A stretch of DNA of 64,000 bases. Source: Candidatus Babeliales bacterium. Lineage in GTDB: Bacteria; Babelota; Babeliae; Babelales; JANWKD01. Shown piece by piece: positions 10,451-50,142 of this stretch. How positions within the stretch are numbered: the first letter of the stretch is position 1; every line of letters begins with the position of its first letter. The translations under genes were made by a program, and so were the position numbers. The stretch covers positions 832,001 to 896,000 of the forward strand of contig CAVRJM010000001.1 in assembly GCA_963722075.1 (NCBI GenBank). Direction: 5' to 3'. The notes beneath the pieces are model-generated. The model was not told where the DNA came from. It did not search any database and was given only the letters and a program-made list of their open reading frames with translations.

Positions 10451-10751
10451 TACTATCTCCACTTTTTATACAATAAACAAGAAAGATTTTTCCTTTATAA
10501 TTATACTAAATGAATAGCAAGGTTTTCAATATTTTTATAATTTATTCATATTGAAAATTTATGGATTATCACTAGAATAATAGTGTAAATAGAGGGTGAT
10601 CTTGCTATGATTAAGGGGATTGGTTTGTTAAGTAGTAAAGGCTGCAGTAAATCTCAAAGCATTAAAAAAGCCGTTGTCGACAATTTGTACAGGGCAAACG
10701 CATCAAATAATAAGTATTTAAGCCAAAAATTAAAAGGATATTAACTTTGGC

Positions 10752-10829
10752 CTGGATCCCCACGCCTTTGGCTCGGGACGACGATGGTTGAAAAAAAGAA
10801 CGTCGTTGCGAGCTTGCGAAGCAATCCAG
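10752..10829. repeat. Palindromic intergenic element (family A, two halves)
   Basis: CTGGATCCCCACG...CTCGGGACGAC ... CGTCGTTGCGAGCTTGCGAAGCAATCCAG. Confidence 0.65.
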
Positions 10830-10926
10830 ATTAAAAATGAAATTGTATACAATTTGTACAGGTTCTATTGCATATATTTGAAATCGAATGGTAAAAAATT
10901 CATTCAATCAAGCTTAATTACTATCA

Positions 10927-31793: not shown

Positions 31794-31824
31794 TCCAGAA
31801 GATATGCTAAGAATCATTGATATT

Positions 31825-32041
31825 AACAATGCAAGCATGGATTCATTTAGCTGCACCATTTTTAAAACATTTTTCCCTAAATGATACTCAAATCAATACA
31901 ATAACTGATCGGCTTTCTACTATTCTTGGATTAACACCTCTAGCCCTTGGTTTCATGAGCACCTTGATCAAGACATGGCACCATTGTAAATATAATCGCC
32001 TATAGAATAGTTGCTCGTATTTATGTAACAAATGGAGATTT
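31825..32041 (+). repeat. Direct repeat: orphan copy of the 3' end and downstream flank of LRR paralog 3
   Basis: Near-identical to 35912-36127 (MQAWIHLAAPFLKHFSLNDTQI...NRL* plus downstream bases). Confidence 0.9.
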
Positions 32042-32151
32042 ACAGATTATCCATAGTAAAATTCAGGTATTATTATTTTTTATTTTTAATAAATATTTAT
32101 AATGAATGTTATCACGTTCAGAAAGAATGGTTATGCATTTATTTTTATTTA

Positions 32152-33298
32152 CAGGACTTACGCAAGAGCATAAGAGTTCTCTTCAAAAGCATAAAATAAA
32201 CTAGATGGTGTAGGGGGTTTTGCGACCCGAAAGGATCTGACAGCTTGTTCAGTATTGTCGAAATTATCTTTTACCCGCCTTATGTCGGCTAAAGCATAAG
32301 CCCATAACACGAAAAGTAAATGCGCACGCTGCATGTTAAAAGAACGCATTTGGCATTCGCTGAATCCAAGAAGTTGTTTGGCAGTTCTATTGAAGCATTC
32401 AATTTGCCAACGAATCTTATATGTAGAAATTAGCTTCTCTTTGCCGAGCTGATGGCTACTGATAAGATACATAATTTTTTCCTTATCAATTTTTAACACA
32501 TAGAAATAACAGGAAAGACCAAAAATAGTGCCGTATCCACAAGCAAATCTGTTATTTTTTTTCAAACGTAAAATTTTTTGCAATTGTCCTGTTTTATTGT
32601 TAATAGTAACAACGCGATTTCTGGGAATTTTCATCAGAAATTTTATTGACCTGTTAAAAAGCTTTGGCAGAAGGTATTCAGTCGCATAATGGGCATCTGC
32701 AATTAACCAATTAAACCGAATTGATCCTAGAACACGCTCTATAATAATGTAAGCAATTTCACTTTTTGTCTTGTAATTGGTTTCTCCAAATACTTTGCTT
32801 ATCATAATCTCCGCATCAATCGGTATTCTTACTCTGGTATCAGTGATCATGCCAATTACAGACCGTAATCCCAAAGCTGATCTTTTCTCACTACTATCAT
32901 AAACAATTTCTAATCCTTCAATATCGTTAGCATATTGCTTATTTACGGGAGTATCATCGATTATCAAATATCTTTCGCAATTGCTAAGACTTTCTAGAGC
33001 AACATTTTGTAATGAGCTTGTTATTTCTGCTGCATTCTGGGCTGCTTTTTCAACTTCCCTATTGAGCACATCATGCATTATTCCCAGTGTTTCAGAAATA
33101 TTTGTGCAAACTTTTCGTGCCGTTGTTTTTAATAAACCCATTACATATTTTGGTGTGCTTGATTCTTCATTTGTATTTGTTATTCTCATTTCGGGTGTCC
33201 TTCTTTTTTGCTTTTGTTGTTTAATTCACAAAATTGAAGCACCCTTTTTTATTTATTTCAAGTCCCAATCAGAACTTTCGACCAATGCGTAAGTCCTG
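32152..33298 (-). mobile_element. IS element, IS701-like (DDE)
   Basis: 13-bp terminal IRs CAGGACTTACGCA/TGCGTAAGTCCTG; flanking direct repeat TTATTTA; single transposase. Confidence 0.9.
32158..33189 (-). CDS. DDE transposase (IS701-like)
   Basis: LIIDDT, IADAHY, YKIRWQIECFNRTAKQLLG motifs. Confidence 0.9.
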   Translation of the reverse strand: MRITNTNEESSTPKYVMGLLKTTARKVCTNISETLGIMHDVLNREVEKAAQNAAEITSSLQNVALESLSNCERYLIIDDTPVNKQYANDIEGLEIVYDSSEKRSALGLRSVIGMITDTRVRIPIDAEIMISKVFGETNYKTKSEIAYIIIERVLGSIRFNWLIADAHYATEYLLPKLFNRSIKFLMKIPRNRVVTINNKTGQLQKILRLKKNNRFACGYGTIFGLSCYFYVLKIDKEKIMYLISSHQLGKEKLISTYKIRWQIECFNRTAKQLLGFSECQMRSFNMQRAHLLFVLWAYALADIRRVKDNFDNTEQAVRSFRVAKPPTPSSLFYAFEENSYALA

Positions 33299-34847
33299 TT
33301 ATTTATTATCTTTTCATTAATAGTATCGATACACACTCCCAATCATGGCATGGAAGCGCCAGCTGACAAAGAAGATGCTGTTACCATTATTTCCATAGAT
33401 AACGAAAAATTAACCATTCCTACTAAATGCAGCAAAAGCAATAATGCCTGATTTGTATGATTTATGCATTCAGTTTAATGAATCAATAATAAATTTTAAT
33501 AACGAAAATGATAAACATCCAGATACCAAAAAATATAAAAAGTTGCCCATAATCAAGGAGTTAATAAGAATAGCCCAAGATTCTTTATATAGCCCAGAAT
33601 CAAAAAATATTAATTATATTTTTGACGCAGCGATCTATTTTAATTCTTCTTCTATCATTTTAAAACGATTAACCTATCATGCTCGAAAAAAAGTTTCACT
33701 AGAAAAACTGCGTCCAGAGATTCAAGCGGGAGTTTTCTCTTATTCTATTGAAGAACTTTTTGATGAAAAATTCTTCGATGTAAATAACATTGTAAAAATA
33801 CAACATGTTGAAACGGGCAGAGGAACTCAAGCCGGTGTAGTTCTTTATGAAACGCATTATTATAACCCATATCTGGATCTTTCAGATTACAATATTGGAT
33901 CGTTAGTTGGCTTATGTAATTTAAAAGAAAAAATAAAAGCGCATCGCATAAAAATAAAAGAACATATTGAAAAAGGTCAAACTAAAGATGGGTATACACC
34001 AACAAAAATTACCATTACAAATGGATACACCCAAGCAAAAGAGATTTACAAAATTAAACTCAATAAAAATGTTTTAACTGATAATTCGCTTGGAATTATT
34101 TCTTCATTCCATCAACATTTCCCTCGATTGAAAGTTTTAAAGCTTAAAAAAAATCAATTTACCCAATTTAATCCTACTTTTAACCCAAAGAATACAATGG
34201 TAGGATCCTATCTTTTTTTAGTGAGCCTTAACAACAATAACCTTAAAAAGTTACCTCAATATCAAAACTGCAACAAACAATTAATATTCAAAATAAAAAA
34301 TAATCCGCTCACTATAAGAAATCGGTATATAGCTCGAAGTGGGTCGCGCTTAAGAGATGTTTTTCTCTCTCCTTTAATAGGATTGAGTATTGCCTTAGGT
34401 ATTAACGCTGGAGCGAAATTATTGTATCGATCATTCTTGCATAATTATGTATCGCTTGCACCAAGCCATGAAGAAGCTATTAAAGAATGGGGTACTTATC
34501 CTCTAGGTGCATTTTTTCTATATGGTTTATTTAACAAATTTAGCTTTTCTCCTTCTATAACTCCGCCAATTTACAAAGTAAGTCGCCCATCCACCTATAC
34601 TGAATCTTTTTATGAGTTTCTAGAAGATATACTTAATATCAATTACGATCTGTTTATTGGTAATCCAAAAAAAATCTGTTCTTATTTTTTAACTAAAATT
34701 ATGAGAGCTAAACATTCACAATGAACAATTCCCATGTACCATTCAGTTTTATGTCTTCTATTGATTATAGCTTTCAACATATAACTATATTCATGGAAGT
34801 ACCTGAAAAAGAAAATTTCATCTATCATTATTTTACCAAAGGACATC

Positions 34848-36092
34848 ATGTTATTTTATTATCTAATTTTTTTATTAGGTTCAATGAGCTACAATTCTCT
34901 CTTAAGTATGGAAGGCCCCTCATCATCACCAGAAGATATAATAACGATCACTGATATCAATAACGAAACCTTTAGCATATCACGCGCTTCTTTGCAGCTA
35001 ATAACGCCCTCCTTTTCATCGTTTTATGAAGATTCAACAGAATTAAATTTTCAAGAATTGACTGATACAAGATCACAAGACATCTGTAAACATGCAACTA
35101 AAGCAATTATCTTAGAATTAGAAAAGATTGCTCAAGATTCATTATACTGCCCTCCGCTCGATGCTATTAATTATCTTTTTGAAGCAGCTAATTGTTTTGC
35201 ACATCCACTTATTCTAGAACGACTTACCTATTATGGGCATAAATACCTTCCCGTAAACAAGCAACATAAACTTATTCAAGCACAACATTATTCTTATACT
35301 ATAGCTGAACTTCTTAATGAAAAATTTTTTGACATAAAGACCATCATAAAGTATCAAGAAACGCATCATAGATTGTACGGTCATTGGCATGATGGCCATT
35401 CATATGAAAAGCTGATTTTTGAATATTGGCTTGATTTATCAGGGTACAATATTGGATCGCTTATAGGATTTGAAGAATTATGGAGTCAACTTGCTACGCT
35501 TCATGTCCCAAAAGAAACAATTGCCAGTACCAAATTTCCGCCCTATAGTGTAAAAGGCTGCCCTAAAAAAGGGTTAGTGTTCAAAATTAAACTTAATAAT
35601 AATGCATTAAGATCCATCAAACATTTAAATGAATTACTTAATTTATTTCCACGTTTAGAAATTATAAAATTAAATGATAATCCTCTAAGGCTTGTCGATG
35701 ATGAAATTACTAATATGCGATCTGTTACTATTAAAGCAAACAACCAAAAACATGAAATATTTCATAAAGCTCAAAATGCGCTTCTCCTTAAACGGCATAT
35801 TTTGCCACGCACTACTCCATCCAATAATACTCCGGCAAGCCTTGAACCCGGATATCTTTCAACAATTGGAACGTTAATAAGCCCTATTTTGATCGGCATT
35901 GGCGTTGGAGCAACAATGCAAGCATGGATTCATTTAGCTGCACCATTTTTAAAACATTTTTCCCTAAATGATACTCAAATTGATACAATAGATGATCGGC
36001 TTTCAACCATTGTTGGATTAACACCTCTAGCCATTGGCGTCATGAGCTCATTGTTAAAGACCTGGCATTATTATAAACATAATCGCCTATAG
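34848..36092 (+). CDS. Secreted BTB/Skp1-like + LRR protein (paralog 3)
   Basis: LLS-MEGP start; shares IAQDSLY, LERLTYY, YSYTIAEL..EKFFD, LDLS.YNIGSL.G and KIKLN.N.L with paralog 2. Confidence 0.8.
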   Translation: MLFYYLIFLLGSMSYNSLLSMEGPSSSPEDIITITDINNETFSISRASLQLITPSFSSFYEDSTELNFQELTDTRSQDICKHATKAIILELEKIAQDSLYCPPLDAINYLFEAANCFAHPLILERLTYYGHKYLPVNKQHKLIQAQHYSYTIAELLNEKFFDIKTIIKYQETHHRLYGHWHDGHSYEKLIFEYWLDLSGYNIGSLIGFEELWSQLATLHVPKETIASTKFPPYSVKGCPKKGLVFKIKLNNNALRSIKHLNELLNLFPRLEIIKLNDNPLRLVDDEITNMRSVTIKANNQKHEIFHKAQNALLLKRHILPRTTPSNNTPASLEPGYLSTIGTLISPILIGIGVGATMQAWIHLAAPFLKHFSLNDTQIDTIDDRLSTIVGLTPLAIGVMSSLLKTWHYYKHNRL

Positions 36093-36127
36093 AATAGCTG
36101 CTCGAATTTATCTAACAAATTGAGATT
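35912..36127 (+). repeat. Direct repeat partner of 31825-32041
   Basis: Direct nucleotide comparison. Confidence 0.9.
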
Positions 36128-36184
36128 TTAAGTTTTTTTCCTTATAATAACAGCTAACACTTCTTTTTGATCCTCAAATAATAA

Positions 36185-36261
36185 GTGCCCGTAGCTCAGT
36201 TGGATAGAGCAACGGATTTCTAATCCGTAGGTCGTAGGTTCGAATCCTACCGGGCACACCA
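36185..36261 (+). tRNA. tRNA-Arg(TCT)
   Basis: GTGCCCG acceptor stem, D-arm GCTCAGTTGGATAGAGC, anticodon arm ACGGA-TTTCTAA-TCCGT, GTTCGAATC T-loop, encoded CCA. Confidence 0.97.
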
Positions 36262-36312
36262 GTCATTTCCTTCAGAAATGCCTGGCAGGCCAGTTATTTC
36301 TAATGATTTATT
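36257..36312 (+). repeat. att-like hairpin core, copy 1
   Basis: CACCAGTCATTTC-CTTCA-GAAATGCCTGGCAGGCCAGTT...TAATGATTTATT. Confidence 0.85.
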
Positions 36313-36435
36313 TCAACAAAAGGGAGATTCTTTTAAGAGCCTATCCCTAGACTTTTTGACTATTTTTTAGTTTCAGATAGAATAAAATATATAAAGCTGC
36401 TTTATAGAAGCTAATTATTATTATGTCAGGTTATT

Positions 36436-37431
36436 ATGTATAAGAATCACAAAACATTTTTTTCCCTGGGGATCATATTCTTAAGTAGCATTTTCTGCTC
36501 AAAAACAGCTGCAATGGAAGAATCACGCTCTGAGCTCTGTAAACAAGTTAAAACCATAAGCCCAGAAGCTTCCCCGAAAGAATACTCTTCACTGGCAATG
36601 AGGCTGCGCGATGCAGGTTTATCTGTCGGTGAATGTGTCCGGAACCTTTGTGAGCGGAGAATTGAAAAAGCTAAACATGCCATAGAAAAAGAATGGGGTA
36701 TTACTCAGCGCGATTGGGATGCAATTGAGAAAAAAGTTGAAAGCATTAAGGCCCAAGATCAGCAAGAGGAACTTATGATATCAGTTGATCCTAAACTTCA
36801 GGAACGTCAGGAAGGAATTGGTGAACTTATCGCGCAAAAACTTTATGAAGCTGGATGTAAAGGTACTTTCATTCTTACTTATGCACCACCAAAAATTGAT
36901 GAAACAGGTCTTAGCAGATTTTTTGACGTGTTTGTAAGCCGTAATATTGAAGCAAAGGAATATCCGTTTGATTATGAGAATAAAAGAATAAAATATGAAA
37001 TCATAACAGCTGGAGATTTTGAGATAGAGATTGGGCCAAGGTTTTTTGAATATAGCCCTAAAGAACAAGAAGGTTGTTTGCTACATGAAATACGGGGTCA
37101 TGTTGTTCATAATGACTCAGTACAAGGTGGGCTTTTATCTACAAGCGCATGTATTTATAAGCCTGAACTTGTGGAGGATCGCTTGCCGTTCCGGAAATCA
37201 GATTCCGTACTGAAAAGATTTAAAGCTATTGAAGCTCGAGCAGATCAAGTTCCAGCAGCATGTATGACTGCCCATGAAGCTCAGCTAATTGAAGCATGGC
37301 ATGCTCGTAATAACCAAGAAACAACTTCTCATGATGTTGATAACTATCGCCATGATCTAATAACTAAACGTTTGGCTATGGCAATGCGAATTCGAAAATT
37401 AAAAGAAGCTGAAGAGCAGCTAAATATCTAA
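36436..37431 (+). CDS. Secreted protein with putative zinc-metalloprotease motif
   Basis: Signal peptide TAA-MEES; LLHEIRGHVVH and downstream EARAD (M48-like arrangement, HExxxH variant). Confidence 0.6.
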   Translation: MYKNHKTFFSLGIIFLSSIFCSKTAAMEESRSELCKQVKTISPEASPKEYSSLAMRLRDAGLSVGECVRNLCERRIEKAKHAIEKEWGITQRDWDAIEKKVESIKAQDQQEELMISVDPKLQERQEGIGELIAQKLYEAGCKGTFILTYAPPKIDETGLSRFFDVFVSRNIEAKEYPFDYENKRIKYEIITAGDFEIEIGPRFFEYSPKEQEGCLLHEIRGHVVHNDSVQGGLLSTSACIYKPELVEDRLPFRKSDSVLKRFKAIEARADQVPAACMTAHEAQLIEAWHARNNQETTSHDVDNYRHDLITKRLAMAMRIRKLKEAEEQLNI

Positions 37432-37889
37432 TAAGAATAATTTTTCAGATGGTTATTATATAGAATGCTTTTCCCTTGGGTTCATTGTTCTTGAAAAAGT
37501 TAGTAGTGGTATCCACTGAAAATCATCCTATCTTACCATAAGTTGCAAATATTCTACCGAACGGTAGTTATTGTGATATATTTATTCAAAATAATTCTAT
37601 GCTTCCAGCCCGTGACAAAATGTCACGACTTCACCTACTATACCAATGATGTTCAACCGTCGACAAATTGTCGACAACTCAATTTTAATGATTGAAATAA
37701 ATATTAATAGAAAATTGAAAAACGAAAGCTGCATGGCGGCCATAACTTTTTTCGATCTATTTTATAAAAATGTCGTGTATTAAGGAAAAATTCAATAAAA
37801 TATCGTTTTTACAACTTAAAATTTAAGTTATAATTACAAATATAATCTAAGATTGTTTATAGAAAGTTTTATTATTTATAGGAAAATTT

Positions 37890-39404
37890 ATGCTCAAAGG
37901 TTTAAGTTTCATTGCTCTTTTTTTTGTTTTTTCTGTGCAAGCAATGAAGAAAGATCATTTAAAATTTTTAGAACTATCATCAAAATGGTTTAAAGAAGAA
38001 AATAAAAATCCACAAAAGCAGGAATTACAAAGAATGGAAATGTCTGAATATGAGAGACATTTAACCCGTTTAGAATTAGAACCAGAAGAATTTAAGGAAA
38101 CAGTAGAAGAAGCTGCAAACGAAAATTTTATAAATTTTCCTGATGAACATGGCAAAACTATATTACGGAATGCGATATATTTAGGAAAACCCGAACATAT
38201 TAAAATATTGTGTTCGCATAAAGCAGATCCTTTTGTGAGTGGCCATTATGGTGAACATGCATTTCATGATGTTGCAAGATTAGGGGATCTCGCAACACTT
38301 CGTCTGTTGCTTAGATACCATAGCAGTAACCCCATCTGGGAATCTATTAGAAATGACCATAATGCTCAAGAAAGGGCTGTTAATTCTCCCTTATTTTATG
38401 CTCAAAAAAATGGGCATGATGTATGTGCATTTGTACTTAAGAATTTTCATAAGTATAACAAACCTATAACTAAAGCAATAATTTTTGGCGATATCGATGC
38501 TCTTAAAGAGCATTTAGAAAAAAGAGATATTTCTGAGATTATTGATCGACCAATTACTGGCAATTATACTCGTAACAATTTAACTGGTTATTGTACCCCT
38601 TTAACCTTTGCTATTTTGGTGCAAGATTATGAAATGGTTAAATATCTTTTAGAAAATGGTGCTCGAGATCCAGGTACATTTCTTACAAAGTACTTGGCTA
38701 AAGATATACCAAATGAAATTAAGAAACTTTTAAAAAAATATAATATTCAATTACTTCCATTTAAACAATATCAATTAAAGAATTGTAAACAAATGGCCCT
38801 CAGCAATGCTGTGCTTAGCGAATTTAAGCCAAAAGTGACTAAAGCTCTTAAATCTGGTGCAACAATTAATGGTTTTGATCATAAAGGAAATACCGCGCTT
38901 CATTGGGCATGCACCATAGGCAGCCCTGTAATGATTGATTTATTGTTACAATTAGGAGGTGACCCTAATATAGTTGATCGTGATAAACAGAGAACTGGGT
39001 TACATTGGCTCTTAAGAATGCACAAACAATCAGTCAAGAAGCATGAAGCCCAAATAGCGACAAGTATACTTTTCCCCTGTTTGTTTTTGTTGGTTTCTGC
39101 TGGGGCAGATCCTAACATTAAAGATGATCAAGGCAAAACATTTTTGGATTGGTTAACAGAAAAATTTAAGGACGACCACAAAGAATTAGCACATCGAATA
39201 TTAGAAGTGAGGTCTCTTTCTAGCGCTGAACGTATAAAATTATTAGAAAATATCTTTGATTTTCAAATGCATCAAATGAATAAATGGCATTTAAAAAGCA
39301 AAAGCTTTGATTTAAGAGATGTTGCTCATATTAAAGCTGTTTGTGTAAAAAAGTCGGGACAGAATTCAGATTTTAAGGATATTTATAAAAAATATACTTC
39401 ATGA
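37890..39404 (+). CDS. Secreted ankyrin-repeat protein
   Basis: Signal peptide VQA-MKK; GKTILRNA, TPLTFA, GNTALHWA, RTGLHW repeats. Confidence 0.88.
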   Translation: MLKGLSFIALFFVFSVQAMKKDHLKFLELSSKWFKEENKNPQKQELQRMEMSEYERHLTRLELEPEEFKETVEEAANENFINFPDEHGKTILRNAIYLGKPEHIKILCSHKADPFVSGHYGEHAFHDVARLGDLATLRLLLRYHSSNPIWESIRNDHNAQERAVNSPLFYAQKNGHDVCAFVLKNFHKYNKPITKAIIFGDIDALKEHLEKRDISEIIDRPITGNYTRNNLTGYCTPLTFAILVQDYEMVKYLLENGARDPGTFLTKYLAKDIPNEIKKLLKKYNIQLLPFKQYQLKNCKQMALSNAVLSEFKPKVTKALKSGATINGFDHKGNTALHWACTIGSPVMIDLLLQLGGDPNIVDRDKQRTGLHWLLRMHKQSVKKHEAQIATSILFPCLFLLVSAGADPNIKDDQGKTFLDWLTEKFKDDHKELAHRILEVRSLSSAERIKLLENIFDFQMHQMNKWHLKSKSFDLRDVAHIKAVCVKKSGQNSDFKDIYKKYTS

Positions 39405-39431
39405 ACATTTTTAAACTGTCACAGTATTACA

Positions 39432-39767
39432 ATGTCTACATTTAATTCGATGCCTAGAAAAATGCATAAATATGATGTATTAAAATCTCATATTATGGCA
39501 TTTATTATAGCTTGCATATTAGTTGTAATAGCCCATTATTTCGCCGTTTGGCTAAATAATTATCATTTTCTTTCTGCAGAATGTATTTCATGGATCCAAT
39601 CTTTTAGTATTATTCCAATGGCAGTAGTTGTATATGGTCAGTTATCCTGGGATATTCAAACATGGGATGGGAAAACGCCGGCAGAGAAATTGAACAAAAA
39701 TTTGTTTAAAATAATTTCAGCCATTGGGTTTTTCTTTGCAATATTAGCATTTCATTTAAAACCATAG
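39432..39767 (+). CDS. Small three-TM membrane protein
   Basis: Three hydrophobic segments, 111 aa. Confidence 0.6.
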   Translation: MSTFNSMPRKMHKYDVLKSHIMAFIIACILVVIAHYFAVWLNNYHFLSAECISWIQSFSIIPMAVVVYGQLSWDIQTWDGKTPAEKLNKNLFKIISAIGFFFAILAFHLKP

Positions 39768-39783
39768 GTTGAAGACTCGAGGC

Positions 39784-39974
39784 ATTTTTTTAGTATTCTT
39801 CTAGAGAGATATTAAATGACCGAAACATCAGTCTTCGCTACCAGCTTCGCCTGACACGGCAATCTGGATATGTGTACGTATAATCAATGGTCAAAATATT
39901 ATTCCTGAATGCATCTACTATGTGGCACCAGTCATTTCCTTCAGAAATGACTGTCAGGCCAGTTTCTTTAATGA
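39784..39974 (+). repeat. About 190-bp module-end repeat with hairpin core, copy 2
   Basis: Aligns along its length with 49679-49866; its right end aligns with 36257-36312. Confidence 0.88.
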
Positions 39975-39995
39975 TATATTATAACTTAATCAATT

Positions 39996-41114
39996 ATGTT
40001 GAAAGATAACACGTTGAATACTCTTGATAACATATTTCATAAAGGCGATTCTTGTTTTTTATTTAGAAGTTTTCCGTTAGATTACAAGTTGCATAATTTA
40101 GTTGAAAATCCTATCAAAATTCATGAAAATATATATTTAGTACAGACACCTTCCATTTTAAATAATACAAAAACTAAAGAAACTATTGCTACAACAGAAT
40201 GGATTTGCCAAGGGTTTCATTTAGGTATTGGCTATTCACATGTCAGCATAAAAATTGATTCATTAGAGGAATCAAGAGAAAAACTTTTCTGGTCTACAAT
40301 CGTTGCATTTTTTTTAGTTAAGCCTCTTTTTATACATATTTCTGGACAATTTAACTATGGTGATCCTGATAACAATTTTATCAATAATCCAGGGAAATAT
40401 GATCTAAGATCAAATCTAAGTTTCAGTTTATCGCAATTTAATACTCAACCACAAAATTGGCTTTCTTATAACACACAAGATATTGAAAATGTAAAACGAA
40501 TCCTACCAAGCTTGCTTGATTGTTGTAACGATAATATAAACCTAAGACAGTTTTTTAATATTCAAATGTTCCTACAAATTTTCTTCTTCGAAAAACTTCA
40601 CTTTGCAAGCTCTCTTTATCAAAAATTATTTCCTCTTTTGGATTCTTTAGCGGGAAATCCTTCAGATTTTAATGTTAGCGAACGATTGGGTAAATTTTTA
40701 GCAGACATTTCATTTAATGAGGGTACTAACCGCACAAGCGAAACACTTGTTAAAGATCGTTTAGCTCATATTTGGGGATTACATAGGTATCCAGAAGTAC
40801 ACGGACATATTAAAGAAAACTATCTAAAGGCAGATATTGCTAATTCAGCTAATATATTTCCAGATAAAAATAACTCAAAGGATCTAATGGATCTTGCTGA
40901 AATGGCCCGAGTATCTTTTTTAAAAATACTATTATTAGATGAATCTAACAGAAAAAAATATGATAATATTCCGATTCCTCCAACGGGTAAAAGTCGATCA
41001 GAAGCAAAAAATGAAAATAAATTTAGAGATATGCAAGCGGAATCTTTTTTTAATTGTGAATATAATAATTCAGATATATTAGTTTTTTATTCTGATCTAA
41101 TTAATTCAGAATAA
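39996..41114 (+). CDS. Hypothetical protein with putative HEPN (ApeA-like) C-terminal domain
   Basis: LDSLAG...VSERLGKFL...LHRYPEVHG gives an Rx4H motif in helical context. Confidence 0.5.
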   Translation: MLKDNTLNTLDNIFHKGDSCFLFRSFPLDYKLHNLVENPIKIHENIYLVQTPSILNNTKTKETIATTEWICQGFHLGIGYSHVSIKIDSLEESREKLFWSTIVAFFLVKPLFIHISGQFNYGDPDNNFINNPGKYDLRSNLSFSLSQFNTQPQNWLSYNTQDIENVKRILPSLLDCCNDNINLRQFFNIQMFLQIFFFEKLHFASSLYQKLFPLLDSLAGNPSDFNVSERLGKFLADISFNEGTNRTSETLVKDRLAHIWGLHRYPEVHGHIKENYLKADIANSANIFPDKNNSKDLMDLAEMARVSFLKILLLDESNRKKYDNIPIPPTGKSRSEAKNENKFRDMQAESFFNCEYNNSDILVFYSDLINSE

Positions 41115-41505
41115 AAGCATAAGAACTTTTACAATCTTAACATCTTAAATTTTCTAATTCTTTACGAACTATCTCTAGTTGCCGATGCACACTAGGGAAC
41201 TTTACCTTGTTTGCATCACTCATAAGCTTATACAAACTTCGTTGATTATACTTTGCAAACATCATTCTTAGCTCCCTAGGGCTCATAGTAGTAAGCACTT
41301 GCTTTAATCCAAAAAGTTGCAAAATCTTTGTTGGGCTCAATTCAGGATTATTAAGAACTAAATCAACAAGCAATGCTTTATCATTGGAAGGCTTATAATC
41401 AAGCAAGGGAGGCCTCTTTGATTCAATTTCATCCAAATAATGCAAGAGCACTTTCTTTGCAATCGCGGGCTTAAATAACTTCTTAAAGGTAAGATCTGTT
41501 TTAAT

Positions 41506-42643
41506 CAGGACTTGCGCAAATAACTTAAAGATATGATCTAGGCGTATTTTAAAAAAATAATAGGCTCTCCTAAAACAACTAAATCGAAGGAGAACCTAAA
41601 TGATCATTGTTAATAATATAGCAACTTATCCATTACTTACAATCCTTACCAATATTGGGAAAAGAAGTTTTGAAAATATGGGTAAGCTCATCAAAAAAAG
41701 TGGTGACACTGTTAATCGCATGTTGCGATCAGGACGTGAAAGCCTTGAACAATCAAAAAGAATTGCCCAACAAATTTTTGCTCATAAAAAAGAGCTATTA
41801 GTAATCATAGATGAAACAACTATTAAGAAAATTTACTCCCAAATGATGGATGGTACGTGTTGGTTTTTTGACACAAAAATTGGTAGATCCATTAACGCAT
41901 ATAAATTGCTTATTAGTGCCATTTCCGATGGTAAATTTACTGTGCCAATCAATACTGTTTTTACATTTGGAAAAGAGTTTTATCAGAATCCCAAGCAAGC
42001 ATTAATAATCACGGTACAACTATTTATCATCGAAGCTCAAAAACTTTTTCCCAATGCAAGAATTATTGCAGTTTTGGATGGTGCATTTGCTTCGGTGGAA
42101 TATTTAAAATGGGCTATAGAAAATAATATTGCAACCGAAGTGCGTATGCATAGTAACCGTGTAGTTGAATATAAAGGGAAAAAAAGAAAGTTGCGTGAAA
42201 TTAAAGAAATACGCCCAAAGGGCCGGCAGATGGCTCGCACTGTAACCATTGTTTGGCATGGTCTTTCCCTTTACATTACTGCCGTAAGGCGCATTGATAA
42301 GCATGGTAATGAAACTATTGTTTACCAGGCTGCAACGTATAAAGCCACTCCAAAGCAACATGCTACTAATTATAAAAATCGTTGGGGAATAGAAAAATTA
42401 ATCAGAACTTCTAAGCAAAGCTTAGGCCTTCAAGAATGCTTTTCCAGAAAAATAGTTACGCAATTTGATCATATCTGCGCTGTCTTCTTAGCTTATTCAA
42501 TCGCTCAATTGGAAATGAAAAGAAATTCTTATAAGAATCCAGAAGCCGCTATCACAGCCTTTAAGAATAAAAATCCTTCTTCTCTAAATCGTATGTTCAC
42601 TCGATTAGATCGTTATATTGGTGCTATTTATGCGTAAGTCCTG
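41506..42643 (+). mobile_element. IS element, IS701-like (DDE)
   Basis: IRs CAGGACTTGCGCA/TGCGTAAGTCCTG; flanking direct repeat TTTAAT. Confidence 0.9.
41600..42637 (+). CDS. DDE transposase (IS701-like)
   Basis: IIDET, VLDGAF, YKNRWGIEKLIRTSKQSLG motifs. Confidence 0.9.
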   Translation: MIIVNNIATYPLLTILTNIGKRSFENMGKLIKKSGDTVNRMLRSGRESLEQSKRIAQQIFAHKKELLVIIDETTIKKIYSQMMDGTCWFFDTKIGRSINAYKLLISAISDGKFTVPINTVFTFGKEFYQNPKQALIITVQLFIIEAQKLFPNARIIAVLDGAFASVEYLKWAIENNIATEVRMHSNRVVEYKGKKRKLREIKEIRPKGRQMARTVTIVWHGLSLYITAVRRIDKHGNETIVYQAATYKATPKQHATNYKNRWGIEKLIRTSKQSLGLQECFSRKIVTQFDHICAVFLAYSIAQLEMKRNSYKNPEAAITAFKNKNPSSLNRMFTRLDRYIGAIYA

Positions 42644-43121
42644 TTTAATACCCAATTTCATAAACAGTTGTTTAATTTTCTGACGCTTATTCAATCGAAC
42701 TTCCATGCGCAAAATCTCAAACTTTTTTCTTTCCCTGAACCAGGGGAACAACGAATAAAGCAAGGCACTATCTTTATCTATCTTCTTTTGCTGCTCTTCT
42801 TTGCTTTTTCCATATCCTGAACCTTGTCATAGAAAACAATTCATATGTGTTGCAATACCACTTATAACTATGGCCATTATTACCATATTTGAGTTTGATT
42901 TGTATCAAGCGAAATCTTTATATTGAACAAAATTAATTGAAATTAAGTTGTTTAGCGGCTTACTTGCTCATCGAGCCCGATAATATATTTCGGAAATTCG
43001 AAAGATAATTAAGAACCATTAATTTTAGTTATTCGTATTTTCCAACATTGAATTTTTTTTAAATATATATATAATTATATTATTCTAATTGCTATATTAA
43101 ATGCTAGGCATAGCATAAAAA

Positions 43122-46100
43122 ATGAACCCAAAACACAAAAAAGCTTATTATTTTTTCAATAAAGGTCTGTTTATTAATCTTAATAGTTTTATTGAATTAG
43201 AAAATAGAATCTTTGAGTTACCAGATTACGAGCGAGGCGATGCATTTGAGGTATTTGCTGAAGCTTATTTTAAAACCCAAATAATTCACCAAGCCCAAGA
43301 AGTATGGCCTGAAAGCGAATTGCCAGAAAATATACGCCATAAATTAAAATTACCACCCACAGATATGGGTATAGATGGAGTTTTTCAAACACATAATGGT
43401 GAGCATCATGCTTATCAAGTAAAGTACCGAACAAACAGACTCAATCTTTTATGGGATGAACTTTCAACATTTATGGGCCTAAGTGATAAATCGGATAAGA
43501 GGGTTCTTTTTACCAATTCCAATGATATATCATATGTAATGAACGATCGTTCAAATTTTTACTCTATTAAGAGTAATGATTTAGATAAGCTTGATAAATC
43601 AGATTTCCAAGCAATAGAAAATTGGTTAAAATCTGGTTCAATAGTGCGACAAAAAAAATCACCGCTTCCCCATCAAACCGATGCAATAGATGATATTTTA
43701 CAGGAACTTAATGTTAAAAATCGTGCTACTGCAATTATGGCATGCGGTACAGGAAAAACATTAGTAGGCCTTTGGGTTGCTGAAAAAATGAATGCTCAAA
43801 CAGTTCTTGTATTATTACCTTCTCTTGCATTAGTAAAACAGACCCTTCATGATTGGGCAAGACAAAATAGTTGGAATACATTTAATTATTTATGTGTTTG
43901 TTCTGATACTACTGTTATCAATAGTGAAGATAAAACAATCTTCAAACAGCATGATTTGGATTTTCTAGTTACTACTCAAAAAGAGGCTGTTGAACAATTT
44001 CTTAACAATCAAACCATTGCTCAAAAAATTATTTTTTCAACCTATCAATCAAGCAAGATTGTTGCAGAAGCAATGCCACAAGGATTTTCATTTGACTTAG
44101 CATTATTTGATGAGGCTCATAAAACAGCATCTCGCAAAGAAGCTAATTTTGCTTTTGCTTTGCAAGACAGGAATGTATCAATAAAAAAACGATTATTTCT
44201 TACAGCAACACCTCGTCATTATAATGTAAATAAAAAAGACAAAGAAGGCGATCAACAGCTTGTTTTTTCTATGGATGACCAAGCAATATATGGCAAAGTG
44301 GCACATCAACTTTCATTAAGATCCGCCGTACAAAAAAAGCTAATATGTGATTATAAAATAATCATATCAATAGTAGATTCTGAAACGATTAATCGCGAAT
44401 TACTAAAACAAGGTGAAGTTGTTGTTGAAGGAGATATAATTAAGGCACAAAGAATTGCTAACATTTTAGCATTACAAAGTGCTGTTGAGAACTATTCAAT
44501 AAAGCGTATATTTTCATTTCATAATTCAGTACAATCAGCTAAATCATTTACAGCCACTACAAATGAAGGCGTTGGTGCATATCTTAAAGATTTTATTTCA
44601 TTGCATGTCAATGGAGGGATGTCTACTAGTAGGCGTGAAACAATTTTAAAAGAATTCGAAGAATCAGAAAAAGCTATCATTTCCAACGCACGTTGCCTTA
44701 CCGAAGGTGTTAATGTTCCTGTAGTAGATATGGTGGCATTTATATCACCTAAAAAAAGCCAAGTAGATATTATTCAAGCAACAGGAAGAGCTATGCGTAC
44801 AACTGAAGGAAAAAGTTTAGGTTATATATTGATTCCATTGTTTATGCAAAAAGCAGAAAATGAAACTATTGAAGAAGCACTTGAAAAAACTCAGTTTGAT
44901 ACCGTATGGGATATACTACAGGCTATGAAAGAACAAGATGAAAGTTTAGCTGAAATTATTGGCCAGATGAAAGAAGAACTAGGCAGAAGTCTCGGCTTCA
45001 ATGACAATAGATTGAGAGAAAGAATCGAAATTTTAGGCCCCAAATTGTGTATAGAGAAACTACGCAAATCAATAACTTCTATGATTGTTGATAAATTAGG
45101 TTCCGATTGGGATGAACGATTTGGAGAACTTGTTCGATTTAAAGAAGAAAATGGTCATTGTAATGTCCCGATTAAATTTTCTGCTAACCCTTTACTGGGA
45201 ATTTGGGTTAGTACACAACGAACACGATATAAAAAAGGAACTATTCGCTCTTATCAAATTGAGAAACTTAAATCTATTGATTTTTCTTGGGAACAATTGA
45301 AAGATGCTTTTCAGGTTCAATATGATTATCTTCTAAGATTTAGAAAAGTATATCCGCATAGATGGCCCAAGCAAAAAGAAGAATTTCCAGAAGGAAATCC
45401 GTTAGGTAGATGGTGTGCACAAAAACGTTCAAATAAAACAAATTTAGAAAAATGGAAAATTGACTTGCTTAGCATAATAGGTTTTCCTTGGAACCTATTA
45501 GATGAGTTTTTTGAAATAAGATATAATGCTTTAATTGAATTTAAAAAAAGCCACCCAAGTCGATGGCCAAATTATGATGAAAAATTTTCTAAAGACATTA
45601 AACTGCAAGTTTGGTGTGATAGTATTCGTCAAAGATATAAAAAGAAATCAATTAAAGAATGGCAAGTCAAAAAATTAAATTCGATTAATTTTCCCTGGAA
45701 TTTAGAAGAATTTTATTGGATGCAGCAGTATGAATATTTAATCGAATTTCGTAAAATTAATTCAAAGCGTTGGCCAAAAAATGATGAAGTTTTTCCTAAT
45801 GAAAATAAATTAGGCATGTGGTGTAGTACGCAACAGGATAGATTTAAAAGGAGCACTTTATTAGATTGGCAAATTAAAAGATTAAATGAGATTGCATTTC
45901 CATTTAAAAAAGAAAAACTTATGATAGCTTGGCTAAAGCAATATAACTATCTATTGGACTTTAGAAAGATTTATTGTAATCGATGGCCAACCAATATCGA
46001 ACAATATCCAAATCAAAATAAACTTGGATATTGGTGTAAACGGCAGAGATGCCAACTTAAAAATTTGGCTAATTGGCAGATTGAAAAACTTAATAAAATA

Positions 46101-46337
46101 CGTTTTCCTTGGGCAGTTGATTTAGAAAAAAAATATCAAAATAACTGGATAAAAAAGTATAATTTTTTAGTAGAGTTTAGGAAAATATTTCCTCATCGTT
46201 GGCCCAATCGTGGTGAAAAATTTCCAGGAAACAATACGCTTGGAAAATGGTGCCATGATCAAGCATATCGCAAAAATCAGTTATCTGAATGGCGAATTGA
46301 AAAATTAAATGAGATAGGTTTCCCTTGGAAAACATAA
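43122..46337 (+). CDS. Mrr-like endonuclease + SF2 (ResIII-type) helicase + six helicase-associated (HA) repeats
   Basis: RGDAFE..DMGIDG..YQVKY nuclease; MACGTGKT, DEAH, TAT, LTEGVNVP, QATGRAMR helicase; six W..QY..L..F...LG.W...QR...L..I.F.W repeats. Confidence 0.88.
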   Translation: MNPKHKKAYYFFNKGLFINLNSFIELENRIFELPDYERGDAFEVFAEAYFKTQIIHQAQEVWPESELPENIRHKLKLPPTDMGIDGVFQTHNGEHHAYQVKYRTNRLNLLWDELSTFMGLSDKSDKRVLFTNSNDISYVMNDRSNFYSIKSNDLDKLDKSDFQAIENWLKSGSIVRQKKSPLPHQTDAIDDILQELNVKNRATAIMACGTGKTLVGLWVAEKMNAQTVLVLLPSLALVKQTLHDWARQNSWNTFNYLCVCSDTTVINSEDKTIFKQHDLDFLVTTQKEAVEQFLNNQTIAQKIIFSTYQSSKIVAEAMPQGFSFDLALFDEAHKTASRKEANFAFALQDRNVSIKKRLFLTATPRHYNVNKKDKEGDQQLVFSMDDQAIYGKVAHQLSLRSAVQKKLICDYKIIISIVDSETINRELLKQGEVVVEGDIIKAQRIANILALQSAVENYSIKRIFSFHNSVQSAKSFTATTNEGVGAYLKDFISLHVNGGMSTSRRETILKEFEESEKAIISNARCLTEGVNVPVVDMVAFISPKKSQVDIIQATGRAMRTTEGKSLGYILIPLFMQKAENETIEEALEKTQFDTVWDILQAMKEQDESLAEIIGQMKEELGRSLGFNDNRLRERIEILGPKLCIEKLRKSITSMIVDKLGSDWDERFGELVRFKEENGHCNVPIKFSANPLLGIWVSTQRTRYKKGTIRSYQIEKLKSIDFSWEQLKDAFQVQYDYLLRFRKVYPHRWPKQKEEFPEGNPLGRWCAQKRSNKTNLEKWKIDLLSIIGFPWNLLDEFFEIRYNALIEFKKSHPSRWPNYDEKFSKDIKLQVWCDSIRQRYKKKSIKEWQVKKLNSINFPWNLEEFYWMQQYEYLIEFRKINSKRWPKNDEVFPNENKLGMWCSTQQDRFKRSTLLDWQIKRLNEIAFPFKKEKLMIAWLKQYNYLLDFRKIYCNRWPTNIEQYPNQNKLGYWCKRQRCQLKNLANWQIEKLNKIRFPWAVDLEKKYQNNWIKKYNFLVEFRKIFPHRWPNRGEKFPGNNTLGKWCHDQAYRKNQLSEWRIEKLNEIGFPWKT

Positions 46338-46691
46338 AAACAATTCAATAATTAATCTTATTGGTTTTTTCTCATTGAACCCTTCTGTATTCATATAAAC
46401 TATCTTGTATATATTTTTCAAAGGAATATTTTTATGAACCAACAATCTTCTATATTTAGCCATATATCTAGCAATGAAAAAAAGCAAAAATGGTTTCTTT
46501 TAATAAAAACTTTAATACAAGCTCGAATTTCAAAAGGTAATACTGATGAATCTAAGTTATTTGCTGAATTAAGAGTTTTAAAAGACTTAGTTAATAATAA
46601 TGACTATACTTTCATGTTCTACTCTTATCTGAAAATGTTATGTAACTTTTTAGTCACTATTATTTTATCCCAAAAAGAAATGTTTTTTGCA

Positions 46692-47741
46692 TTATTGAGG
46701 TTCATAAAATATGGCATCAATGCTTAGGCGCTTCTTAAAATTTTCTTTTATTTGTTCTTTAAGTTTATCCATTTCGGCATATGGCAAATCGTAAATTGTA
46801 TCTAGTTCAAGAAAAATGAATGCGCATTGTCTTTCAGATTCTTTTGCATATTGCTTTAGTTGAGGGGTAAGCTGAGTTATTCTTCTAAAAATATACTCCT
46901 TAAAAAAAATTTCAAGCTGATCTTCTGCGTAAGATAATTGATCTTCAATTGTAACGAGACCTAACTCAATTGTATCTTTTCGTTCATAATGCACATTAAC
47001 CTTATAAGGATGTTTCAACTTAATATCGTTTGAATTTCTCTTTTCATCAACAATTTGATTAATAAAATTTTTGAGATCTTTAATATGAGATTCTTCTAGA
47101 TCTTGAGGATGTGCACTATAAGAAAAATTGTGCCATGGACGCAGGCTGCCAGATTCCCAAAATCCTGGTTTTGTTTCTAAAAAGGTAATATGTCTTTTAA
47201 CGAAGGTTTTAACTGGCTCAGATTCATGAATAAATTTACACTCTACAATTACCACATCACCATCTTTAGTTGCACGAAAATCTGGCGTTTTCTTATCATC
47301 TTCTCTGGGAATTCTTTCGATACTATATCCCATATTTATGAAATGTAGCATCCCTTTTAGTTCACCGTAAAAATCGTATAGTTTATTATGAACGCCATTA
47401 ACTGTCTTATGTTTAGCAAATGGCAACAAATCAGCGCACATTTTTTTAAACTCATCTTTTCCCAACGATTCATAAATTTTTTTTAAATCTATTTCCATTT
47501 TTTCCATACGATTTTTGCAAGATAAGCCTAATTCGTTATCATTATCTGAAAGCCATAACCATTGAAAATGTGGTATAAATAACCAATCGTCACAGTCTAT
47601 GGCTGATCCATATGTTTTGATGTGCTCTTTAATAACTGGAAGATATAATTGTGAGATCAATGGGTAACATTCAGCTTTTTTTGTAAGATCGGCTATTAAT
47701 ACTTGATGATTTTGAAATATTTTTGAAGTAAAATTTCCCAT
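46692..47741 (-). CDS. Putative PD-(D/E)XK restriction-endonuclease-fold protein
   Basis: GELKG...KTPDFRA...VIVECK motif. Confidence 0.6.
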   Translation of the reverse strand: MGNFTSKIFQNHQVLIADLTKKAECYPLISQLYLPVIKEHIKTYGSAIDCDDWLFIPHFQWLWLSDNDNELGLSCKNRMEKMEIDLKKIYESLGKDEFKKMCADLLPFAKHKTVNGVHNKLYDFYGELKGMLHFINMGYSIERIPREDDKKTPDFRATKDGDVVIVECKFIHESEPVKTFVKRHITFLETKPGFWESGSLRPWHNFSYSAHPQDLEESHIKDLKNFINQIVDEKRNSNDIKLKHPYKVNVHYERKDTIELGLVTIEDQLSYAEDQLEIFFKEYIFRRITQLTPQLKQYAKESERQCAFIFLELDTIYDLPYAEMDKLKEQIKENFKKRLSIDAIFYEPQ

Positions 47742-47935
47742 ATGAATTCCAATAAAAACTACTATTTTCTTAACATAATAAGTTTATCATATTTCATAAG
47801 CCGTAATATAACTTTAATAGTTATTAACTTTAAAAAATTCGAGCAATTTGAAGATCAAGTAATTGATATTTTTAAGAATAATATAGAAAATTTGCAATAA
47901 CCCCAGCTTAAAAAATAATTTTATAAAAGATATAT

Positions 47936-48283
47936 ATGACCTCAGAAAAATTACATTATAAAATTCGTGAAAATAGAGGGCGAAGAATGAGAGAACCATT
48001 TAAGCTGGAATTTTTTGAAAAAACCGAAATATTACTTGATAACTCGCAACTCTTAAATATAAAGCAAAGCGATCTTCTTACAGATAAATTTTGCAGTATG
48101 TTTGCAAAAGGAGATGATAATAATTATGCAAAAATTATCAAAGCAAATAGCATATTGTTAGTTTCAGAAAAACTTAAGAAGTTGTTCGAAAATATGCAGG
48201 CTTCTTGCTTAATTCTCTTTCTTCGTAATGCTTATCAATTAGGAGCAATCAAAATTAATGCTCAAGATATAAAAATATCTTAA
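47936..48283 (+). CDS. Hypothetical protein (possibly a fragment)
   Basis: 115-aa ORF; no recognisable motif. Confidence 0.35.
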   Translation: MTSEKLHYKIRENRGRRMREPFKLEFFEKTEILLDNSQLLNIKQSDLLTDKFCSMFAKGDDNNYAKIIKANSILLVSEKLKKLFENMQASCLILFLRNAYQLGAIKINAQDIKIS

Positions 48284-48419
48284 ACTTGGATGGCGATACT
48301 ATTTTTATACTATCAGAAGACTTAGAAAACGGTATTGATTTGACATTCTATGAAGAGAATGGAAATACAATATATGAAGTAACAGTCTTGGGTATGATAT
48401 GGTCTGCGTTCATTACAAA

Positions 48420-48800
48420 ATATTGAATGATATTTTAATGTTCAATATTAATAAATATGAATTAATTGTTGTTGATTATAAAGCTACATCAAAAACTACA
48501 GCAGTTTCTTTGGATGCCGATTGGCAAATTGCTTATAAACGGCAAGCCGAAATTTACCAATGGCTTTTAAGAAAGAATGATTTTTCTGTTTCTAATATTG
48601 CTTATTTTGTTTATGTAATGGAAAAAACTGCGAGGGCTTTGATAAAAAACTTCTTTTTGATGTATCAGTTCTGCCTTACAATGGTAATGATGCTTGGGTA
48701 GAACCTGTAATTATTGATGCTTATAAATGTTTGCAAGCCTCTAATATTCCGCCTCTAATGGATTTTGCCAATATTGGAAAAGTATTAGAAAACATATTAA
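48420..48800 (+). pseudogene. PD-(D/E)XK nuclease (PDDEXK_1/AddB-like) C-terminal remnant
   Basis: VVDYKATS...YKRQAEIYQWLLR, then a frameshifted continuation FDVSVLPYNGNDAWVEP...FCQYW; N-terminus absent. Confidence 0.7.
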
Positions 48801-48850
48801 TTAAAATTAATTTTTATCATTTAGAAGATAAATCATAAGGTAGGTAAAAA

Positions 48851-49675
48851 ATGAATGCTCATTATGTTCCGCAATTTTATTTAAAAAAGTTTTTAGATAC
48901 CACAAAAGGACAATTGTTTGTTCTTGAGAAAAAATCTTTAAATATTAAAATGGAACCAATAAAAAAAATTTGCTCCGAGAAAGATTTTTTTCAAATAGAT
49001 GGGATTGAAGAATGCGCTAAGGGATTAGGTCTTGAGCACATAAAAGATGATCGTGGTATAAAAATAACTAAAGATTATTTTGAAAATGAGTTATCAAAAA
49101 AAGAATCACACATATCAACAATTCTAAATTTAATAATCTCATCTAATAGTTTTGACCAAATCAACAAAGAGGAATTATGGTATTTTTTAGAATGGGTAGC
49201 ATTTTTATATATAGCTAATCCTTCTACAAAATCTTTATTACAACAAAGAGACCCGCTTGGTTCTGAAACTTCGCGAAATGGAGGTATCATTTCCTGGCAT
49301 GAAAAAATTAAAATGGTTTTTTTGGCAAGAACCTGGGGATTAGCAGTAAGCAAAAAACAATTATTTACAAGCGATCGTCCAGTCGTTTTACATCAAAAAA
49401 TACAAAATCCGGTTGATTTAATTGAATTGGGAAAAACAGAAATCTATTTTCCATTATCTCCTCAACATTTACTAATAGGAAAACCTAATAACAATCTAAA
49501 ATTTGAGGCTTTAAAATTAAAAGAAGAATTGCCTGAACAAGTTAGTTCATTTGTTAACCGATTGCTTTACGATAATGCTGAGCAGAAATTATTGGCGACC
49601 AGATTAGAGGCTCTAAATGAGTTGAAAAACATGGTTAATCCATCATTAAAAATAACTTTGTACAATTTTCATTGA
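48851..49675 (+). CDS. DUF4238 domain protein
   Basis: HYVPQFYLKKF N-terminus, FTSDRPV, YFPLSP. Confidence 0.85.
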   Translation: MNAHYVPQFYLKKFLDTTKGQLFVLEKKSLNIKMEPIKKICSEKDFFQIDGIEECAKGLGLEHIKDDRGIKITKDYFENELSKKESHISTILNLIISSNSFDQINKEELWYFLEWVAFLYIANPSTKSLLQQRDPLGSETSRNGGIISWHEKIKMVFLARTWGLAVSKKQLFTSDRPVVLHQKIQNPVDLIELGKTEIYFPLSPQHLLIGKPNNNLKFEALKLKEELPEQVSSFVNRLLYDNAEQKLLATRLEALNELKNMVNPSLKITLYNFH

Positions 49676-49678
49676 AAT

Positions 49679-49866
49679 ATTTTTTAGTATTACTCTAATG
49701 TAATATTAAATGACTAAATATCAGTCTTCGCTACCAGCTTCGCCCGACATGGCAATCTTGATGTGCTGTAACATAAAATCAATGATCAAAATATTTGTTC
49801 CTGCATGTATCACTATGTGACACCAGGCATTTCTGAAGGAAATGACTGGCAGGCCAGTTTCTTTAA
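49679..49866 (+). repeat. About 190-bp module-end repeat with hairpin core, copy 3 (interior inverted)
   Basis: Core CCAGGCATTTCTGAAGGAAATGACTGG is the exact reverse complement of the copy-1 core. Confidence 0.88.
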
Positions 49867-49895
49867 GGAATTGATGGCGTAGATTGTCCATAGGA

Positions 49896-49975
49896 GTCCC
49901 TGCCCGCCATAGCTGTTTACTCCGCCATAGCTCGAAGAGCGACGGCTGGATGCTAAGCCGGTAGGTATGGATAAG
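49896..49975. repeat. Palindromic element (family B)
   Basis: CCCGCCATAGCTGTTTACTCCGCCATAGCT...GCTGGAT matches 8811-8850 and the reverse complement of 5840-5880. Confidence 0.6.
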
Positions 49976-50142
49976 TCGTAAGCGGAAGCTTAGCTTTTCT
50001 GCAATGATATTCCCATGTAGCACAATCATTTTTCCTTGGGTATGTGATAAATTCTTGAATTAACAAATGCTCGTGGATTAACATTCATTAACCCGTCAAA
50101 AATTTTTATATAAAATCTAAAAAAGTATAAAGGAGCGGTATA

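Follow-up and report, generated by a model that had tools for sequence, protein, structure and literature searches.

Tandem arrays of islands that lack an integrase have been described in Dehalococcoides and in staphylococci, in both cases without a mechanism for their formation. The Dehalococcoides islands at ssrA, with their serine integrase DsiB, are a close precedent for the locus analyzed here, as far as passages of McMurdie et al. 2011 (PMC3146451) describe them. In staphylococci, pseudo-SCC (staphylococcal cassette chromosome) elements lack the ccr genes and keep their boundaries (passages of PMC2900268), and serine integrases favour coding targets according to an excerpt of a provirus survey (PMC13626063). 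SegB of phages T4 and T6 cuts in tRNA genes and thereby drives recombination (excerpt of PMC13096335). Here we analyzed a 64-kb window from the genome of a Candidatus Babeliales bacterium (G000, 1.47 Mb, 99% complete), in which two modules without an integrase lie in tandem at the 3' end of tRNA-Arg(TCT), accompanied by three copies of a hairpin repeat. Coordinates are positions in this window. We use LSR for large serine recombinase and trailer for the CCA-anchored hairpin sequence that follows a tRNA 3' end. The modules are very probably LSR-island relics with a generic trailer. We further propose, with a probability of roughly 0.63, that they are two stacked integrase-less relics, each of which likely lost its integrase when a mobile hairpin cassette re-inserted at the CCA. 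Comparisons were made with 261 genomes of the order, among them the relatives G001, G003, G004 and G022, with 72 related LSR loci (L numbers), and with contigs of low depth from four soil runs of one study (X1, X2 and X4 among them).

Detached integrase tails behind tRNA-Arg(TCT)

In G001 and G003, full LSR genes (Resolvase, Recombinase and zinc-ribbon domains) end in W-C-A-R antisense across the CCA of tRNA-Arg(TCT), and the left arm of the window's repeats recurs 12 kb (G001) and 7.6 kb (G003) behind these genes. Read from the TGG opposite the CCA, the G003 arm encodes 36 residues and a stop codon, and the left arms of copies 2 and 3 translate to WCHIVDAFRNNILTID..., which matches the G003 tail (tblastn E 3.7e-11 and 2.7e-5, respectively). 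A similar tail stands upstream of the integrase, on the same strand, at 27 of the 72 LSR loci (E<=0.011, G003's own included); at L084 the tail is joined in frame to the integrase body, and in G004 the core is deleted and the arm runs directly into DNA for the integrase C terminus. These comparisons show that the predicted attP lies within the integrase gene, so that insertion would leave the gene body beside the tRNA and strand the last ~36 codons at the far end. Because copies 2 and 3 are both structured as tail, CCA and host trailer, we take them to be far ends: they are the predicted attR sites of two LSR islands that arrived one after the other and no longer have their integrase. Copy 2, which the first-pass annotation had read as a P-O-P' junction, is thus a second attR. 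By the same sequence evidence the responsible enzyme is a double-strand LSR, and the integron-like or IMEX-like (integrative mobile elements exploiting Xer) recombination of single-stranded DNA suggested earlier gives way to it, since the conserved arm is an LSR tail and the LSR is present in relatives. The features of the locus are as follows.

36185..36261, plus strand: tRNA-Arg(TCT); its CCA is the integration point (B arm), and the relatives' LSR gene ends W-C-A-R antisense across it
36259..36310, plus strand: copy 1, CCA-anchored hairpin trailer; core 36259-36285, then CAGGCCAG and a TAATGA tract
36262..39930, no strand: module 1, putative island relic; 3669 bp, 33.6% GC
36436..37431, plus strand: 331-aa open reading frame (ORF), cargo of module 1; no family match
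37890..39404, plus strand: 504-aa ankyrin-repeat protein, cargo of module 1
39432..39767, plus strand: 111-aa hydrophobic ORF of module 1; a 56% homolog adjoins the tail in G003 too
39790..39930, minus strand: orphan LSR C-terminal tail (WCHIVDAFRNNILTID...), P arm of putative attR 1; tblastn E 3.7e-11 against the G003 tail
39828..39859, plus strand: palindromic insertion of ~32 nt within the attR 1 tail, resembling a repetitive extragenic palindrome (REP)
39928..39975, plus strand: copy 2, hairpin trailer, B' side of putative attR 1; core 39928-39954
39931..49825, no strand: module 2, putative island relic; 9895 bp, 30.8% GC
39996..41114, plus strand: 372-aa ORF, at the integrase position of intact elements
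41128..42887, minus strand: broken replication-like backbone gene (~residues 163-368 of a 369-aa G003 protein), split by an insertion sequence (IS)
41506..42644, plus strand: IS701/IS4-like IS, 1139 bp; two further genome copies, 98-99.7% identical
43122..46337, plus strand: Mrr-like nuclease / helicase / HA-repeat protein; 56% identical full-length homolog in the intact LSR element L110
46692..47741, minus strand: 349-aa ORF, cargo of module 2; no family match
48851..49675, plus strand: DUF4238 protein, cargo of module 2
49684..49825, minus strand: orphan LSR tail, P arm of putative attR 2; E 2.7e-5 against the G003 tail; frameshifts and a REP-like insertion at ~49721-49752
49823..49995, plus strand: copy 3 with a downstream palindrome mosaic; core 49823-49849

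Both window tails are disrupted by frameshifts and the REP-like insertion, which is absent from the G001 and G003 arms and longer in G004. The alignment of copies 2 and 3 extends over 192 nt with 83% identity, and their left flank is present just twice in the genome; this flank of 140 bp is integrase coding sequence, which rules out the 190-bp unit being a miniature inverted-repeat transposable element. Among the 261 genomes the left flank is convincing only in G001, G003 and G004, 6-12 kb behind tRNA-Arg(TCT), and a degenerate pattern of the left arm found no match in metagenome contigs. The gene flanking the element on the left in G001 and the one on the right in G003 match the surroundings of the window, and therefore the site is orthologous and the cargo differs. 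As the first-pass annotation expected, the same site holds other cargo in three relatives. At the orthologous attR of these relatives, the arm is conserved up to CACC and is followed by a hairpin of another subtype. Moreover, 19 distinct tails in relatives (five offset duplicate rows dropped) continue into a hairpin in 9 cases, other DNA in 9 and an integrase arm in 1. Since 9 of 19 tails have no hairpin and the subtype changes at attR, the hairpin is not required, which contradicts its earlier assignment as the recombination core.

LSR matches occur in 100 of the 261 genomes, and a tRNA called by ARAGORN adjoins 46 of the 72 loci (Asn 19, Asp 12, Arg 8, Glu 6, Gln 1), the other 26 including uncalled tRNA ends, tail junctions and secondary sites. 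One such site (L074:5700-6050) is GCATG-CCA-like and lies inside a protein-coding gene, in a genome that carries the same integrase arm at tRNA-Arg. In G000, Pfam Resolvase matches number zero and no intact LSR was found genome-wide; two LSR pieces were seen there, a 5' stump of 58 residues (contig C4) and, close to tRNA-Glu, a short piece from the middle of the gene. The stump belongs to another decayed LSR island (C4 ~1300-13700) with rep pieces, an IS copy, a tail-like arm with hairpin and a GIY-YIG pseudogene. The window hence holds what are, by sequence, relics and not active LSR-island members, the LSR gene being found only in relatives. Several integrase stumps (in L053-L059, L277 and on C4) end within the first ~40-75 codons, and the G022 copy is internally deleted from ~codon 58; the stump ends possibly mark a breakpoint hotspot.

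Module 2 retains part of an element backbone. Homologs of the replication-like (rep-like) gene occur at 39 of the 72 LSR loci, and in module 2 its 3' half survives, split by the IS, on the strand and at the position seen in intact elements. L110, with the order tRNA-Glu, integrase, rep, the 56% identical helicase-nuclease and tail, is the intact counterpart of this module, in which copy 2 and the 372-aa ORF take the place of the integrase. The 372-aa protein has 5 homologs with an invariant RxPxxH motif; its neighbours in the Atlas are unnamed, and the nearest named clusters are MauJ (49% of members) and HEPN_Apea (11%) at 0.90, a weak lead according to which it is possibly a defence nuclease. 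In the spacer of module 1 (37598-37670) there are short inverted palindromes, and a related soil contig skips 149 nt just upstream of them. Left of the tRNA (30753-36135) lie tandem leucine-rich paralogs with a 224-nt duplication (31825-32048 / 35912-36135, 88%), together with an IS from a second family that has 7 or more copies in the genome.

The hairpin trailer as a genome-wide tRNA-end repeat

The anatomy of the repeats was confirmed. Three copies stand behind tRNA-Arg, the first inside its CCA; the 27-nt cores of copies 1 and 3 are reverse complements of each other without a mismatch; and copy 2 is a hybrid, with the left arm and loop of copy 1, an A in the right arm and a terminal G>T change, and with the left flank shared with copy 3. 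Likewise, the tRNA shares nothing but CACCA with the island, no integrase is present in the window, and the tRNA 3' end is followed by two related elements in tandem. When folded, the core forms a stem of 11 pairs with a single mismatch.

What these hairpins mean changed once the whole genome was considered. Directly after the CCA of the 37 tRNA and tmRNA genes of G000, we found this hairpin subtype in 16 cases, related subtypes in 12 and none in 9 (subtypes assigned by regex classes). The 16 genes bear it in both loop orientations and without islands, so the search for further copies recommended by the first-pass annotation yielded a repeat that is not bound to islands. The exact core of copy 1 stands behind 6 RNA genes (its own included) and that of copy 3 behind 2, and therefore an exactly inverted pair is unremarkable; the inversion had been taken as an attL/attR signature, and is instead a property of a genome-wide tRNA-end repeat present in both orientations. 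Similarly, the right flank shared by copies 1 and 2 had been assigned to a P' arm; as 11 of the 37 RNA genes have TAA(A)TGA behind the hairpin, it is generic trailer sequence. An assembly artefact is ruled out as source of the inversion, both orientations being present at many loci and genomes.

The exact hairpin pattern occurs in 24 of the 261 genomes, some of which show bursts (14, 11, 10 and 8 copies), and a reversed-pattern control gave no match among the genome rows listed; nor did the hairpin pattern match any viral contig. We classed 119 distinct hairpin sites from 98 metagenome loci and 24 genome loci. A tRNA-like T-arm precedes 97 of them, and 12 of the other 22 have a CA..GCCA tract, with left flanks that mostly decode by eye as integrase tails (one confirmed). 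The stem classes are T..A (51), T..C (48), G..A (13) and G..C (7), the only four that the search pattern permits, and both loop orientations occur. At tRNA-Leu(TAA), tRNA-Tyr and copy 3, the first hairpin mismatches the downstream partner arm, as if swapped. The trailers of copies 1-3 have a mutual similarity of 0.80, compared with 0.77-0.83 to other tRNA trailers. In an Rfam scan the tRNA was the sole match and the trailer had no family, and a terminator scan on the tRNA strand called none of the three hairpins. Template switching in hairpins inverts loops and corrects stem mismatches, according to passages of PMC8794818, and the copies studied here display the same pattern of inversion and mismatch correction. 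The loop flip and stem mismatch are thus likely ordinary variants of the hairpin family that arose from template switching; the passages of PMC8794818 concern rRNA histories, whereas our reading is drawn from variant classes alone.

A proposed route of integrase loss and trailer return

Plain tandem insertion predicts junctions of tail, CCA and integrase, and trailers are seen instead; the trailer therefore either returned between the insertions or came with the module. We propose a route in three steps. An island would first integrate by double-strand exchange at or near the CA of the CCA. The trailer-less tRNA would then be re-capped by a hairpin cassette, which in relatives bears a small GIY-YIG nuclease gene, and the tRNA-proximal integrase would be replaced or later deleted. 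The restored tRNA-CCA-trailer would finally offer the following island a new attB. Of the two modules, module 2 would be the older, copy 3 with its mosaic presumably being the original host trailer of the tRNA and copy 1 the trailer most recently acquired. As the genome has no intact LSR, the array is probably fixed.

Re-capping is favoured by integrase stumps in relatives that are abutted by trailers and GIY-YIG genes. When the retrieved loci and G000 itself were screened systematically, a trailer and a GIY-YIG gene lay within 1.5 kb on the tRNA side of 3 of the 5 integrase fragments truncated at the 3' end, compared with 3.3% of random stretches. In the tRNA-Arg and tRNA-Glu arrays of G004, a trailer and GIY-YIG gene are followed 15 and 26 nt away by the 5' stump of an integrase, and in G001 one gene lies between the GIY-YIG gene and the stump. 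At L084 and L140 the trailer sits between tRNA and integrase 3' end. Other rows with a trailer next to an integrase were set aside, mostly reflecting a neighbouring upstream tRNA (L256 read directly, the rest judged from tRNA order). In G000 itself GIY-YIG genes stand behind the trailers of tRNA-Gln, -Gly and -Glu. A tRNA-Glu locus (G000:C1:1111300-1113100) has, in order, the trailer, a GIY-YIG gene with an internal stop, cargo and an LSR middle piece. A second small GIY-YIG class (G000:C1:140175, 1361604 and 1398471) is flanked by inverted CGTC-type palindromes and is not at tRNAs.

Several results weigh against this proposal. Neither a GIY-YIG gene nor an integrase remnant was found in the window, the latter with an LSR profile of 47 proteins and blastn inside the island, and the second step is therefore read across from relatives; module 1 also yielded no backbone or rep gene. 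The three trailer-joined stumps come from just two genomes of one family, and of the 119 hairpin sites, 107 of them with 300 nt of flank or more, only 12 have a GIY-YIG motif within 400 nt. The trailers around an integrase-less module of G001 are each other's best match (93% over 85 nt), which fits a trailer-bearing circle or local conversion as well. In an arm-matrix symmetry test, copy 2 and three relatives peak at the CA centre and copy 3 has no score; the test is of moderate strength, as 81 of 37,852 CCA sites match or beat copy 2 and the best of nine offsets was taken. Finally, no empty site of the same species was seen in the low-depth soil contigs. Two soil-contig joints, 36256>49821 (X2) and 39984>49821 (X1), were candidates at 88% likeness and both were lost at 95%; their short side of 36 nt equals the match between copy 3 and the tRNA-Arg(CCT) trailer, and they provide no evidence of an empty site or circle. 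Soil contigs do not cover ~45.7-49.5 kb, from which we draw nothing, and one X4 contig running from the tRNA end into integrase-type sequence was left unused, its source organism being uncertain.

The alternative that survives best, in our view an unlikely one, keeps the LSR relics and has the trailer restored by ordinary host recombination, either through gene conversion, with the island's attR trailer or another tRNA as donor, or through uptake of DNA anchored by tRNA homology, the GIY-YIG gene being a passenger. The near-duplicate trailers of G001 speak for it, as do the swapped-looking first hairpins described above, which suggest short conversions, the majority of hairpins without a GIY-YIG gene, and a 147-aa integrase remnant in G022, where plain deletion also erodes the gene. 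However, unrelated tRNAs share little past the T-arm and CCA, yet 6 bear identical cores; the genome-specific bursts across families look like active spread; and the broken integrases are abutted by GIY-YIG genes.

Less probable still is that the modules are non-autonomous satellites, inserted as tail-CCA-hairpin circles by an LSR in trans or by RecA, as has been proposed for pseudo-SCC and cis-mobilisable elements. Exchange between attR and attB would yield the observed kind of order, B-B' / cargo / P-B' / cargo / P-B', the duplicated G001 trailers fit, the small hydrophobic gene stands beside the tail in both G000 and G003, and 100 of the 261 genomes have an LSR match. On the other hand, the decaying backbone gene of module 2 and the integrase stumps behind the relatives' trailers fit decay in place, the trailers of copies 1-3 are not clearly closer to one another than to others, and no intact LSR was found in this 99%-complete genome. 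Serine integrases, moreover, generally do not recombine attR with attB. A recombinase acting on the folded single-stranded hairpin in the manner of attC or IMEX sites, with the inversion as record of the reaction, can be set aside despite the 11-pair stem and the XerC-like, XerD-like and single Y1 transposase genes of the genome, because 16 RNA genes bear the hairpin in both orientations without islands, its subtype switches at the orthologous attR and 9 of 19 tails continue without it, the conserved arm represents an LSR tail, and no integron integrase was found.

If the re-capping proposal is extended beyond this locus, two selfish elements might be competing for the same three bases: the hairpin/GIY-YIG cassette would home to any trailer-less tRNA CCA, also to one that an LSR island has newly occupied, cut away the integrase, fix the cargo in the chromosome and rebuild attB for a further island, a one-way ratchet that could stockpile defence and host-interaction genes behind tRNAs in Babeliales. 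We put this forward tentatively.

Comparison with known systems

The locus differs from integrons, IMEX elements and tyrosine-integrase islands. The consensus ends of attC sites are RYYYAAC...GTTRRRY; here the ends are CCA...TGG, and the modules measure 3.7 and 9.9 kb with several genes each. No IntI was found in G000; the two tyrosine recombinases have XerC/XerD as their top-scoring models and do not reach the IntI cut-off. IMEX elements integrate through XerC/XerD arms at the chromosomal dif site, which does not fit a locus at a tRNA end whose hairpin is borne by 16 RNA genes; the dif site of the genome was not located. No integrase of the tyrosine-island type was found, and within the island no match to the tRNA exceeds 11 nt (E 0.18).

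The trailer resembles the CGTC-tagged REPs, which passages of PMC3733652 describe as short palindromes whose stems measure 8-9 bp and whose loops measure 4-5 nt, with a GTC-like tag and a CCA tail, and for which, as for our hairpin, no dedicated transposase is known. The 5-nt loop and downstream CCA match; AGTC is paired in the stem here, whereas the REP tag (CGTC, TGTC or CCTC) is unpaired. Our hairpin is also anchored at the CCA, which its stem includes, and the 'tRNA' passages of PMC3733652 concern genes of tRNA enzymes; the passages contain no GIY-YIG link. SegB, a free-standing GIY-YIG homing endonuclease beside tRNA genes (excerpt of PMC13096335), is comparable in kind; it is a phage enzyme, whereas here a chromosomal gene of ~80 codons stands behind the hairpin at many tRNAs, the connection being adjacency only.

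Searches of titles and abstract starts, with most subscription papers outside their scope, did not return LSR arrays at tRNA CCA ends, CCA-anchored hairpin/GIY-YIG cassettes or an interplay of the two, and a prior description is possible; on tRNA-CCA targeting, the part of PMC12884075 consulted added nothing. The analysis removes an apparently new single-stranded recombination system and explains the anatomy by two recognisable parts. If re-capping is true, it provides a concrete route to integrase-less island arrays and a testable role for the small GIY-YIG genes that stand behind tRNAs in the chromosome. In several phyla the parent LSR family uses the CCA of at least 5 tRNA types, inserting behind it and leaving the tRNA unaltered, which may suit genome engineering.

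The closest relatives of such an array are two. Pseudo-SCC elements share with it a recombinase-less tandem module at an LSR target, bounded by integration sites (passages of PMC2900268), and the relatives' LSR gives weak scores against CcrA and CcrB models; they differ in that their target is orfX/rlmH and not a tRNA, the passages do not include a split integrase tail, and these scores lie far below the Ccr cut-offs. The Dehalococcoides islands, in the passages of PMC3146451, target the tmRNA and have a direct repeat of 20 bp and a module of six genes, DsiA among them; here the target is the tRNA CCA, the shared core is ~5 bp, and a host hairpin trailer stands at each junction.

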